Source: a virus (Duplodnaviria > Heunggongvirae > Uroviricota > Caudoviricetes). Taken from it: a stretch of 15,321 bases of DNA. A program made the position numbers and the translations under genes. The stretch lies in the IMG/VR virus record IMGVR_UViG_2698536443_000012; one strand, 5' to 3'. The notes below the pieces were generated by a model. That model was not told the DNA's origin. It searched no databases and worked only from the letters and a program-made list of their open reading frames with translations. Each line of letters begins with the position of its first letter. Positions within the stretch are counted from its first letter, which is position 1. This document shows, piece after piece, positions 3,240-11,990 of this stretch.

Positions 3240-3300
3240 TGAGTAGAATTTAGAATAGCCTAAGAGTTATGGTCAAGCTTTTTGTGTAGAAAAACCTAAG
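3240..3300 (-). promoter_or_regulatory. Candidate DicA-repressed leftward promoter (dicBp-like) with operator half-sites
   Basis: On the minus strand, -35 TTGACC (plus 3271-3276) and -10 CTAAAT (plus 3248-3253) with 17-bp spacer. Minus-strand CTTAGGTTTTTCTACA (plus 3285-3300) nearly repeats CTTAGGTTTCTCTACG in the dicA-dicC intergenic region. TTAG-N6-CTAA at 3250-3263. Confidence 0.4.
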
Positions 3301-3374
3301 CTTCTTGATGTAAAAAACACAAGTATTTGAAAGTTTGTGCTTTTTATTACAGAGAGTTGCGAAAAAAAGGGGGG

Positions 3375-3782
3375 TTATTTATTTGCGCTTCTTTTGCGAG
3401 CTTTGAGTAGTTCTTCAAAAAGTTTGTTGAAATTCTCAACTCGAGCACGCATCTCTGACAACAGAGCCTTTTGCTCTGACTCAGGCAGTGCGTCGAACAG
3501 TTGAAGCAACTCTTTTTGATCTTCTGTCAGATTGACTGGCTGATTATCTGGGATCGGTTCGCCTGGTTGCTTATCTTCATCTCCAAAAAGAAGCCAAGTC
3601 GGCGAGCACTGAAGCGCCTGGCTCAGTGCGAATAATCTCTTCCCCGCTGGCTGTGTTTCATCTCTTTCCCATTGAGAAATTGTTACGTGAGCCACTTTGA
3701 CCAGCTTACCTAATGCGGCCTGAGACAGTTTTAATTTTTTTCGCCTGTATAAGAGGCGAGCACCGAAGGTTTCGTTTTTCAT
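3375..3782 (-). CDS. dicA: Prophage repressor DicA (XRE-family HTH, cI-like)
   Basis: 135-aa ORF with HTH motif LSQAALGKLVKVAHVTISQWERDETQP and C-terminal ...ALPESEQ...EMRARVENFNKLFEELLKAR closely resembling E. coli DicA as I recall it. Divergent from dicC. Confidence 0.85.
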   Translation of the reverse strand: MKNETFGARLLYRRKKLKLSQAALGKLVKVAHVTISQWERDETQPAGKRLFALSQALQCSPTWLLFGDEDKQPGEPIPDNQPVNLTEDQKELLQLFDALPESEQKALLSEMRARVENFNKLFEELLKARKRSANK

Positions 3783-6855: not shown

Positions 6856-7522
6856 GCGGATGGTGCAGGCCTGAAATCATGATACTAACAATGAAGGTAA
6901 AATGCATCGGCAGTCTGATTGGTCGTAGTGAGGCGGCGGTCAGGATGAAAGCCCAGGTTAAGGGAATAAGCCTGATTCTGCGGGGTGATTTTCACCAGTC
7001 AACAAAATATCCGTAGCGCGATAACGGTCAAAAATTATGGCGCTGACACTTTTGTGCCACTGGAGATGACTGTACCTAAGTTCAGGGGAGAAGAACACGT
7101 CCGGTGGGATGGTCGGGCCAGATTTAAAGGGCAGGTCATGGCTCCAGCCTGTACGCTGGCAATGGAGGCTGCCTGGCGGGAAATTGATATGGGAACCACG
7201 CCACTCAGGGATTTACTGCCGGTCCAGAGAATAAATTCCTGTTACGGTTACACCACTGTGATCTTGCAAGTGCAGGAAAGTAGGTCTACACGGTAACGCG
7301 AGTGCGTGTAACTTTTGATGTCATTCCCGTAGAAACACCGGACAAATTTTCGCTGACAGGTCATGCAGAAGGTATAAATCTGCAGATTATGGACAATTAC
7401 GGATATCCGGCAAGAGCCGGAAAAAGCATGCCGCCTCTAATTCTCAGTGGAAGATGGACTTGATTATACTCATTGCATTGTCAGAAATAGTTATCCATTA
7501 AAGGCTGGCTATTCCAAACAGG

Positions 7523-7550
7523 ATGTTGATTACAAAAATGTAATCAACAT
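7523..7550. promoter_or_regulatory. Perfect 12-4-12 palindrome upstream of the binding-protein moron
   Basis: ATGTTGATTACA-AAAA-TGTAATCAACAT in an AT-rich intergenic region about 165 bp upstream of the ATG at 7715. A TATAAT hexamer lies at 7577-7582. Confidence 0.4.
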
Positions 7551-7714
7551 GTAAGGTTTATACTCTTCAATATGCGTATAATTTTCCTTATTTTGTTGAC
7601 TTTAAATAACAAGCTATGCACGAGGTAAAGTCGGATAAGTTTATCTGGATGTAATATATATTATTTGTAGTGTTTATAACTTTATTTCATGATAACCAAT
7701 AAAAGGAGTTTTTT

Positions 7715-8473
7715 ATGAGGAACATAATGGCAGGTTTTTTAATATTCCTGTCTTCTGCTGCTTATGCTGATATCAATCTGTATGGTCCTGGTGGCCCGCA
7801 TACAGCCTTGCTTGATGCAGCCAAACTTTATGCCGAAAAAACAGGTATTATAGTGAACGTTCATTACGGCCCACAGAACAAATGGAATGAAGATGCCAAA
7901 AAAAATGCAGATATCTTGTTTGGCGCATCAGAACAATCTGCTCTGGCTATCATTCGGGACCATAAAGACAGCTTCAGTGAAAAAGATATTCAGCCTCTTT
8001 ATCTGCGAAAAAGTATTTTACTGGTAAAGAAAGGTAATCCTAAAAATATCCGGAGTATTGACGACCTGACCAGACCTGGGATTGGCGTAATTGTTAATGA
8101 TGGTGGTGGTACCAGTAATACATCAGGCACTGGCGTCTGGGAAGATATTGCCGGACGTAAAGGGAATATAGAAACTGTCGCCGCAATCCGAAAAAATATT
8201 ATTTTATATGCGCCCAATAGCGGAACTGCACGTAAGGCTCTTGAGAATCAGCCTGGAGCAGATGTCTGGATAACCTGGGCTGACTGGGCAGCCAGTAATC
8301 CAGAAATTGGTGATGTCGTGGAAATAGCGCCAGACTACGTGATATGGCGTGATATGAACATTACAGTACGTCAGGATGCAAATGATGAAACCCGTCGATT
8401 TGCAGAATGGCTACAAACCGATGAAGCGGCGCCTGCATTCAAAAAATATGGCTGGACCAGGAAAGGCACTTGA
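7715..8473 (+). CDS. Secreted/periplasmic solute-binding protein, ModA-like (type 2 periplasmic binding fold), orphan
   Basis: AAGGAG RBS 6 nt upstream. N-terminal signal peptide MRNIMAGFLIFLSSAAYA then DINLY. C-terminal ...RRFAEWLQTDEAAPAFKKYGWT resembles the ModA C-terminus (...FYDYLKGPQAAEIFKRYGFT, from memory). AT-rich gene with no adjacent permease or ATPase genes. Confidence 0.7.
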   Translation: MRNIMAGFLIFLSSAAYADINLYGPGGPHTALLDAAKLYAEKTGIIVNVHYGPQNKWNEDAKKNADILFGASEQSALAIIRDHKDSFSEKDIQPLYLRKSILLVKKGNPKNIRSIDDLTRPGIGVIVNDGGGTSNTSGTGVWEDIAGRKGNIETVAAIRKNIILYAPNSGTARKALENQPGADVWITWADWAASNPEIGDVVEIAPDYVIWRDMNITVRQDANDETRRFAEWLQTDEAAPAFKKYGWTRKGT

Positions 8474-8479
8474 CATCCT

Positions 8480-8505
8480 CGTCCTTCAGGACGTGGATTC
8501 TTTTT
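8480..8505 (+). terminator. Weak terminator-like hairpin after the binding-protein gene
   Basis: CGTCC-TTCA-GGACG stem-loop followed within 6 nt by a T5 run. A second hairpin ATGCCGC-GCCA-GCGGCAT follows at 8510-8527 without a U-tract. Confidence 0.3.
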
Positions 8506-8808
8506 CCGGATGCCGCGCCAGCGGCATGTAGGGGCAGCTCACAAAACGGAAAAAATTGTACGCTAAGCCTCGCCAGGTGAACTGAATTCATTCCGATATG
8601 GGAATTCCCATATCGGGCGAAAACGGTTTGCTGTAACGGCAGAGTTAAGTAGGATTGCTGCGGGTGCTTGAGGCTATCTGCCTCGGGCATGAACACCAAC
8701 GGCAGATAGATAAAAGCCCCACCCGACTATAAATCGAAGTGAGGCCCCTATATGCTCGTCACATATAGATTGCCTCTTACGGACCGAAAGGTCAAGGAGA
8801 AGCAGGCT

Positions 8809-8964
8809 ATGAAGCAGCAAAAGGCGATGTTAATCGCCCTGATCGTCATCTGTTTAACCGTCATAGTGACGGCACTGGTAACGAGGAAAGACCTCTGCGA
8901 GGTACGAATCCGAACCGGCCAGACGGAGGTCGCTGTCTTCACAGCTTACGAACCTGAGGAGTAA
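8809..8964 (+). CDS. hokD: Hok-family membrane toxin (HokD/RelF-like), with in-frame upstream mok extension from 8752
   Basis: 51-aa ORF MKQQKAMLIALIVICLTVIVTALVTRKDLCEVRIRTGQTEVAVFTAYEPEE, the Hok family signature. The in-frame extension MLVTYRLPLTDRKVKEKQA with GAGG RBS fits a mok reading frame. Confidence 0.85.
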   Translation: MKQQKAMLIALIVICLTVIVTALVTRKDLCEVRIRTGQTEVAVFTAYEPEE

Positions 8965-9060: not shown

Positions 9061-9184
9061 TTTTCAACGCGTTTGAAGTTCCGGACGGCGCCGGAATAGA
9101 ATCAAAAATACTTAAGTAGCGCGCAGGGAGAAGAGGGATGGACCCCGAACAGGGGAGTGCTATTTATCTGGAAGGATTCTGTTG

Positions 9185-9442
9185 ATGAGAATCGAAGAAT
9201 TACGTGAAATTTTTAGTGAAGATGGCCTCTATACTGTGCGCGTTGAGAAGGGCGCTATTGTCAGCCACTGCCGTATTAAATGTTTACAGTCTCAACAAAG
9301 GAAGAGTGGAGCTGCGTTAATTCATTTTGTGGATGGGCTTGTGACGGATGGTTTTATTTTGCGTGCAAATGAATTTGTCACATCGTTGCCGTCTCTGAAA
9401 GAAGCTGGGATTAAGGCTGGTTTTTCTGCTTTTGAAGATTAG
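9185..9442 (+). CDS. Small prophage protein, Rem-like by position (85 aa)
   Basis: ATG at 9185 (the track's TTG at 9182 is an alternative) with GGAAGGA upstream. Lies between hok and the DUF968 gene as rem does in Qin. Function unknown. Confidence 0.5.
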   Translation: MRIEELREIFSEDGLYTVRVEKGAIVSHCRIKCLQSQQRKSGAALIHFVDGLVTDGFILRANEFVTSLPSLKEAGIKAGFSAFED

Positions 9443-11910: not shown

Positions 11911-11962
11911 TTCATGCAAATCTGATATTTTGCCGATTTTGTACGTGATGGCAAAAGCAAAC

Positions 11963-11990
11963 AAAACCCGCCCACAAGCGGGTTTTGTTG
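11963..11990 (+). terminator. Rho-independent terminator (tR'-like)
   Basis: AAAACCCGC-CCACAA-GCGGGTTTT stem-loop followed by a T-rich run. Confidence 0.55.

Follow-up and report, generated by a model that had tools for sequence, protein, structure and literature searches.

The core of a perfect palindrome upstream of the prophage gene paa appears to be an HprR/CusR-type activator site of a paa promoter that has no -35 element, so that paa would answer to oxidant or copper stress; we put the probability of this reading at roughly 80%. It draws on sequence match, spacing, conservation, recurrence of the box at other promoters and co-expression; from these we infer that a regulator binds and activates the paa promoter, which signal induces it and where transcription begins. 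The type of element is known, and paa as its target is new: no earlier report was found in the searchable literature, and searches on paa with CusR, copper or promoter found no account of paa regulation.

In the mechanism we propose, the core would be a binding site for OmpR-type response regulators of the heavy-metal/oxidant kind, namely CusR and HprR (YedW/HypW) of E. coli, to which proteins such as Legionella LciR are related. A dimer of the phosphorylated regulator would occupy the inverted repeat ATTACA-N4-TGTAAT; a third repeat, TGTAAGG, stands at the position usual for a -35 element. Dimer site and third repeat together would recruit RNA polymerase to the -35-less promoter, from whose -10 hexamer (TATAAT, 7577-7582) transcription would proceed into paa and probably on into hokD/ckf and Z2055. 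As the prophage carries no such regulator, the moron would rely on chromosomal two-component systems.

The palindrome and the predicted paa promoter

The whole stretch of DNA analysed (15,321 nt, hereafter the window) is a lambdoid EHEC prophage, which occurs in 623 of 5426 complete E. coli genomes, including those of O157:H7, O26, O103, O111, O121 and O145; the same prophage has also been deposited as 'PPompW' prophage records. Since paa lies between replication genes and hokD/rusA, the label 'moron' used in the original prediction is a fair one. The features on which the argument turns are as follows.

7021 to 7509, + strand: papH/sfpH-like fimbrial gene remnant to the left of the paa module, frameshifted and missing ~38 nt at its end (annotation and DNA homology)
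7510 to 7527, no strand assigned: junction segment TATTCCAAACAGGATGTT(G), weakly resembling the flank (a truncated Tn3-family tnpA) that precedes the box in a Shigella flexneri plasmid
7523 to 7550, no strand assigned: perfect 12-4-12 palindrome ATGTTGATTACA-AAAA-TGTAATCAACAT (sequence and shuffle test)
7528 to 7545, + strand: core box GATTACA-AAAA-TGTAATC (7-4-7), predicted HprR/CusR-family response-regulator dimer site (consensus match, likeness to hiuH, conservation)
7550 to 7558, + strand: third, direct repeat TGTAAGGTT, 5 nt past the box at about -39 to -31 (identical 9-mer at the same spacing in K-12 hiuH)
7577 to 7582, + strand: predicted -10 hexamer TATAAT (spacing to the box, invariance)
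7589, + strand: predicted transcription start, placed from the position of the -10 alone
7703 to 7708, + strand: ribosome-binding site AAGGAG, read from the sequence and kept in homologues
7715 to 8473, + strand: paa (adfO, Z2053), encoding an AcfC/PEB3-family periplasmic solute-binding protein annotated as an adhesin (NCBI annotation, Pfam SBP_bac_11, PDB relatives PEB3 and AcfC)
8480 to 8493, + strand: weak terminator-like hairpin after paa (terminator scan)

The 28-bp palindrome is exactly as had been claimed, as are its position upstream of TATAAT at 7577-7582 and its distance to the ATG, the 252-aa open reading frame starting at 7715, 165 nt past the end of the palindrome. To judge its chance occurrence we scored perfect inverted repeats whose arms measure 12 nt or more and whose loop does not exceed 10 nt. 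Such a repeat turned up in 5 out of 300 dinucleotide-preserving shuffles when the whole window was randomised; for the AT-rich surroundings alone (7400-7720), the figure was 2 out of 5000 shuffles. The palindrome at 7523-7550 is real, and a chance origin is unlikely. It had also been described as lying in the AT-rich leader of the gene; it does not belong to the transcribed leader, as it sits upstream of the predicted promoter.

In the NCBI annotation, a frameshifted 'fimbrial protein' pseudogene (7021-7554) spans the palindrome, with its TAA at 7552-7554. DNA homology to intact papH/sfpH-like genes nevertheless stops at about 7509-7513, and the intact genes end in 38 nt of different sequence. 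It follows that the palindrome does not belong to the fimbrial coding sequence and that the last ~40 nt of the pseudogene are misassigned. The junction segment 7510-7527 matches the tnpA flank at 11 of 21 positions in register, a likeness that is suggestive only.

As a binding site, the predicted unit is smaller than the palindrome. Positions 7529-7544 read ATTACAAAAATGTAAT, which agrees with the consensus ATTACAAnnTTGTAAT at 13 of its 14 specified positions (one mismatch); that consensus is matched once in the window, where 0.07 matches would be expected even with up to two mismatches allowed. The sequence has the form by which we define this class of box, an inverted repeat like ATTACAAnnTTGTAAT with half-sites AT[T/G]ACA and TGT[A/C]AT and a 4-bp spacer. 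The first base of the right half is A in the paa box and T in the consensus, and the same A recurs in the plasmid DUF305, bhsA-like and Desulfuromonadaceae sites described below. Beyond the inverted repeat, the third repeat TGTAAGGTT gives the predicted site its direction. The suggestion of a regulator-type site thus stands, while its extension over the whole 28 bp does not: the predicted unit comprises ~16-18 bp plus the third repeat.

Counted from the middle of the box, the -10 hexamer begins after 40.5 nt in paa, against 41.5 nt for both hiuH and cusC; although 1 nt shorter, the paa spacing keeps the precise box-to--10 distance of copper-box promoters. By hand count, the value is again 40.5 or 41.5 at four of the further boxes introduced below (L023 2520, L024 1399, L005 616 and L009 3381). 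A simple sigma-70 scan found no -35 matching TATAAT 7577-7582, as expected of an activator-dependent promoter. A start at 7589 would place the box centre near -52.5 and leave a leader of ~126 nt.

Several other elements were seen in the window. Directly downstream of paa lie the sok antitoxin RNA at 8662-8811 (Rfam RF01794, 103.9 bits) and hokD (ckf, Z2054) at 8809-8964, with Z2055 at 9182-9442. Between paa and sok/hokD there is a second perfect palindrome, CCGATATGGGAA/TTCCCATATCGG, at 8593-8616; it is 24 bp long, has no spacer and contains an EcoRI site. Of the 5426 E. coli genomes, 580 contain the 121 nt around it, a count close to that for paa. At 11960-11989 there is a third perfect inverted repeat, AACAAAACCCGC-CCACAA-GCGGGTTTTGTT, with 12-bp arms; it looks like a bidirectional intrinsic terminator.

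Relatives of the box and its spread

The published HprR/CusR box in the hiuH-hprR intergenic region is CATTACAAAATTGTAATG (PMC9302797; HypVW preprint). Aligned over the box and third repeat, K-12 hiuH reads CATTACAAAATTGTAATG-CTGC-TGTAAGGTTA and paa reads GATTACAAAAATGTAATC-AACA-TGTAAGGTTT. The two have in common, at the same spacing, the half-sites ATTACA/TGTAAT, an A/T spacer of 4 bp, the third repeat TGTAAGGTT after 5 nt, and GGTT. In both cases the box points toward a gene for a periplasmic protein, and the distances to the -10 agree to within 1 nt. There are also differences. The hiuH box is CATTACA-AAAT-TGTAATG and that of paa GATTACA-AAAA-TGTAATC, so that the flanking pair is C...G rather than G...C and the spacer AAAT rather than AAAA. 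The arms reach 12 bp in the paa palindrome, unlike those of the hiuH box; the leader would be ~126 nt in paa and ~25 nt in hiuH when the same start rule is applied; and hiuH is divergent from hprRS, whereas paa lies in a prophage with no regulator gene adjacent.

A similar architecture is found at cusC, in the intergenic region between cusC and cusR (copper/silver efflux in E. coli), where ATGACA-ATTT-TGTCAT-TTTTC-TGTCAC has the same 6-4-6-N5-6 layout as paa and a similar distance to a -10-like hexamer, although with half-sites ATGACA/TGTCAT and third repeat TGTCAC. CusR and HprR have been reported to share a common recognition sequence. Linsky et al. 2020 (PMC6989116) describe a LciR element with the consensus ATTACAAnnTTGTAAT upstream of the Legionella pneumophila effector gene lciE. 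According to that study, short conserved elements stand at a precise distance before the -10, every part of the element is required for copper induction, and lciE is induced in E. coli through CusRS. The third repeat of paa may correspond to the 4-bp elements given there. Like the paa box, the lciE element is unique in its genome and puts a virulence gene gained by horizontal transfer under the control of a two-component system of the copper family, which in paa is a prediction. In lciE, the regulator and kinase lie in the same island as the target and copper induction is experimental; paa has no linked regulator, and its induction is predicted.

Besides the prophage, plasmid homologues of paa (86-89% DNA identity) occur in four further contexts, which are an ETEC plasmid, a Shigella plasmid beside IS1 and STa, an IncI plasmid beside IS21, and pSTEC299_1 beside DUF305/YncE genes. 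The five left flanks are mutually unrelated, and homology starts at 7510-7529, in or just before the left arm and no more than ~20 bp ahead of the box; on the right, the borders are ragged, from ~8462 to 8540. Across the five leader variants, the box (16/16 positions), GTAAGGT (7/7) and TATAAT (6/6) are invariant, and the remaining leader is invariant at 58%. The longest invariant run is the box itself, a 19-nt block ATTACAAAAATGTAATCAA at 7529-7547 (permutation p = 0.011 for the five variants). Related by descent as these leaders are, we regard their invariance as only moderately strong evidence. The end of the box and TATAAT are separated by 32 nt in all five variants with no indel between them, while the distance from the box to the ATG ranges from 186 to 204 nt, the visible indels falling downstream of the -10.

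The outer parts of the palindrome behave differently from its core. Only the inner 7-4-7 core (7528-7545) is kept in related loci, so the 28-bp palindrome exists as described but is not conserved as one unit. The outer 5 bp of each arm are lineage-specific, with arm lengths of 12 bp here, 10 bp in the ETEC plasmid and 6 bp in each of the remaining three. A perfect extension by 5 extra bp per side has a chance probability of ~1e-3; it is partly shared with the ETEC plasmid and absent elsewhere. The HprR/CusR model leaves these perfect outer arms unexplained.

In Paa homologues of 74-87% protein identity (from E. albertii, Salmonella/E. coli plasmids, Yersinia, Raoultella, Edwardsiella and Enterobacter) no box was found, and their leaders are unrelated. 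Orthologous loci thus give a divided answer, the core being present in all five leader variants and missing from the more distant paa orthologues with unrelated leaders. The box belongs to one mobile paa lineage, as far as these comparisons indicate, and not to the gene family. We had considered that it might be an ancestral feature of the paa family, and rejected this since homologues 74-87% identical do without it.

The palindrome had been expected to mark a regulon elsewhere in host genomes. BLAST of a 40-nt paa site against 5426 E. coli genomes, with E up to 10, gave matches beside paa only, so the exact 28-mer is not a shared operator; a regulon appears instead at the level of the motif, with hiuH and cusC. 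We also scanned 185,579 species genomes for ACAAAAATGTAATCANNNNGTAAGG, the conserved core followed by GTAAGG. There were two matches, which is about chance level, both of them intergenic. One, in a Desulfuromonadaceae genome, directly follows a pair of genes that encode a response regulator of the cztR_silR_copR family (327.8 bits, cutoff 279.2) and a sensor kinase of the heavy-metal type. It was the position of this match beside a heavy-metal regulator pair that pointed to the CusR/HprR box of E. coli.

On plasmids of E. coli and E. albertii, box, third repeat and -10 are also found ahead of CopM-like DUF305/YncE genes and of bhsA-like genes, where the surrounding sequence is unrelated. These promoters have the same type of box, the same spacing and a TATAAT-type -10 as paa, and differ in half-site variants (ATGACA or TGCAAT) and in the genes downstream. 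On pSTEC299_1, one DUF305/YncE-type box promoter lies ~1.9 kb upstream of the box of the paa-like gene itself.

Further observations concern the surroundings of such boxes. A virulence-plasmid cluster of E. coli and E. albertii comprises bhsA-like DUF1471, CopM-like DUF305 and YncE-like beta-propeller genes, sometimes with a paa-like gene, and each unit has its own box promoter (loci L005 at 616-645, L023 at 2520 and 4922, L024 at 1399 and 2520, L025 at 2555); no regulator is nearby. In the Desulfuromonadaceae metagenome-assembled genome (L009), two tandem boxes at 3291-3306 and 3381-3396 lie downstream of the CusRS-like pair, and the genes after them encode an NHL beta-propeller, a multihaem cytochrome and a YncE-like protein, so that YncE-like propellers stand behind this type of box in two distant phyla. 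In Bacillus bingmayongensis (L010), the motif CTTACAAAA[AC]TGTAAT-N5-[TC]GTAAG[CG]TAATTCGATAGT occurs at 753, 3315 and 6620 as three very similar promoter-like copies within 8 kb, one of them after genes that by eye are modAB-like.

Host regulators and expression of paa

Counted over the whole set of complete E. coli genomes, hprR-hiuH is present in 5413 of 5426 and cusR in 5334 of 5426; on these species-wide counts, a cognate regulator and kinase should be available in cells that carry paa. The regulator pair usually, if not obligatorily, sits beside its target, and in this respect paa departs from the rule: the annotation shows no gene for a response regulator or kinase in the ~8 kb to the left or right in the prophage, nor within 2.5 kb in the plasmid contexts.

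Published expression data bear on the choice between the two systems. HprSR has been described as a sensor of HOCl/H2O2 and CusSR as a sensor of copper/silver. In an independent-component analysis of EHEC RNA-seq data (PMC9263587), modulon 16 contains ten genes, among them hiuH (weight 0.216), msrP (0.183), Paa/Z2053 (0.147), msrQ (0.082), Z2054 (0.074), Z2055 (0.072) and hprR (0.071), together with cadB, yeeE and cysD; hiuH, HprR and Z2053 are not mentioned in the main text of that article. The cus genes form a separate modulon (31) without Z2053 (PMC9263587). In bovine rumen content, EDL933 shows Z2053 up (log2FC 2.4) alongside cusC (3.5) and cusF (4.0), and in rectum content Z2053 is up and the cus genes are not. 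Since Z2053 falls outside the cus modulon and is induced without cus in rectum content, copper may not be the main signal. The presence of Z2054 and Z2055 with paa in modulon 16 suggests read-through from the paa promoter.

On the basis of this co-expression, HprSR (HOCl/H2O2) is more likely than CusSR (Cu/Ag) to provide the input, a preference tempered by the reports that both recognise the same box. Co-membership in an independent component is a correlation, and modulon 16 also holds cadB, yeeE and cysD. The earlier proposal of a dimeric-regulator site that gives the moron its own transcriptional control is supported by the consensus match, the hiuH-like layout, the conservation and the co-variation with hiuH-msrPQ-hprR.

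Other readings of the palindrome, and what the promoter would mean

The alternative that fares best, although we consider it improbable, is that the box is a relic inherited from a copper/oxidant locus and has no function in EHEC, or is bound by another OmpR-family protein such as CpxR. CpxR sites are direct repeats of the form GTAAA-N5-GTAAA, and GTAAT-N6-GTAAG at 7540-7555 is loosely CpxR-like, but with a spacing of N6 where CpxR sites have N5. Distant paa orthologues manage without the box, and the AT-rich leader could undergo silencing by other means, both points in favour of this alternative. A relic would hardly have kept its three repeats, GGTT and the -10 invariant although ~40% of the leader columns have diverged, and the specific co-variation of paa with hiuH, msrPQ and hprR argues against both versions. 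Other known sites, including those of FNR (TTGAT-N4-ATCAA), TyrR (TGTAAA-N6-TTTACA), Fur, Zur and CpxR, Xer/dif and the ToxT toxbox, presumably misfit the palindrome in spacing or orientation.

It is considerably less probable that the palindrome is a recombination site, a mobile-element end or a hairpin hot spot at the left border of a mobile paa cassette. The idea gains from the onset of homology among the five loci at 7510-7529, within ~20 bp of the palindrome, and from the Tn3-family sequence that comes close to the core in two plasmids: a 38-bp inverted repeat 5 bp from it in the IncI plasmid and a truncated tnpA abutting it in the Shigella plasmid. The 28-bp, 11-6-11 geometry superficially recalls Xer sites, whose dif/cer consensus we take to be unlike the palindrome arms. 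Left borders spread over 7510-7529, however, with no fixed breakpoint, are not the pattern of a recombination site; the ragged right borders (~8462 to 8540) offer no partner repeat, the core occurs once per paa locus, and the Tn3 repeat is found at one end only and in just two of the five contexts. Promoters of the DUF305 and bhsA-like genes likewise show homology from just upstream of the box, as expected if selection keeps whole promoters, and a known transcription-factor site accounts for the sequence in full.

The Tn3-family sequences themselves were located as follows. Upstream of the plasmid paa genes, the terminal inverted repeat of 38 bp (GGGGACAGTTTGGATATCGAAAATTATTGTACGTCAAG) is found at 2063-2100 in the Shigella plasmid (L003) and at 2458-2495 in the IncI plasmid (L004), in the latter 5 bp from the box. 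In L003, manual translation of 2100-2530 gives a tnpA 3' remnant that runs from the repeat to the box.

An RNA hairpin, acting as a terminator or insulator against upstream prophage read-through or as a stabilising stem-loop, is a still poorer account, and we give it very little credence. The 12-bp stem does fold at -13.8 kcal/mol (centroid), with z = -3.1 against shuffles. It is an AT-rich stem without a U-tract and went unreported by the terminator scan, which is not what an intrinsic terminator looks like. The palindrome moreover lies upstream of the predicted paa start, its outer stem is not conserved, three homologues retaining a 6-bp AT-rich stem only, and the palindrome region has no Rfam match. 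Finally, a chance palindrome or leftover coding sequence of the fimbrial pseudogene, which the NCBI pseudogene drawn to 7554 and the AT-richness of the region might suggest, has next to no probability given the shuffle tests (5/300 and 2/5000), papH-like homology that ends at ~7509-7513 where the natural 3' end is different, and a core kept in non-fimbrial contexts.

With an HprR/CusR-type activator site as the preferred reading, a wider and distinctly tentative idea can be formulated, which we hold to be less likely than its negation. The genes for Paa, CopM-like DUF305, YncE-like beta-propeller and BhsA-like proteins may form a mobile set of periplasmic and outer-membrane functions with a common HprR/CusR-type promoter on prophages and virulence plasmids, using the HOCl/H2O2 and copper sensors of the host cell to recognise a gut that is inflamed or rich in copper. 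In that case Paa might serve mainly in envelope protection or in sensing under oxidant/copper stress, and not in adhesion, and EHEC would step up a colonisation factor, along with the hokD/ckf toxin gene downstream of it, specifically on meeting neutrophil-derived oxidants. The promoter type common to paa and to copper/stress genes calls into question the adhesin role of this solute-binding-protein homologue.

The paa gene (adfO) is in wide use as a virulence marker for EHEC, EPEC and porcine ETEC. If the site works as proposed, its expression would be tied to host signals, namely the oxidants of inflamed tissue, and copper, which is supplied at high doses in pig feed. A direct connection from HprSR/CusSR to a prophage moron would represent a horizontally acquired colonisation factor plugged into a core stress two-component system, for which the only reported parallel we found is Legionella lciE.
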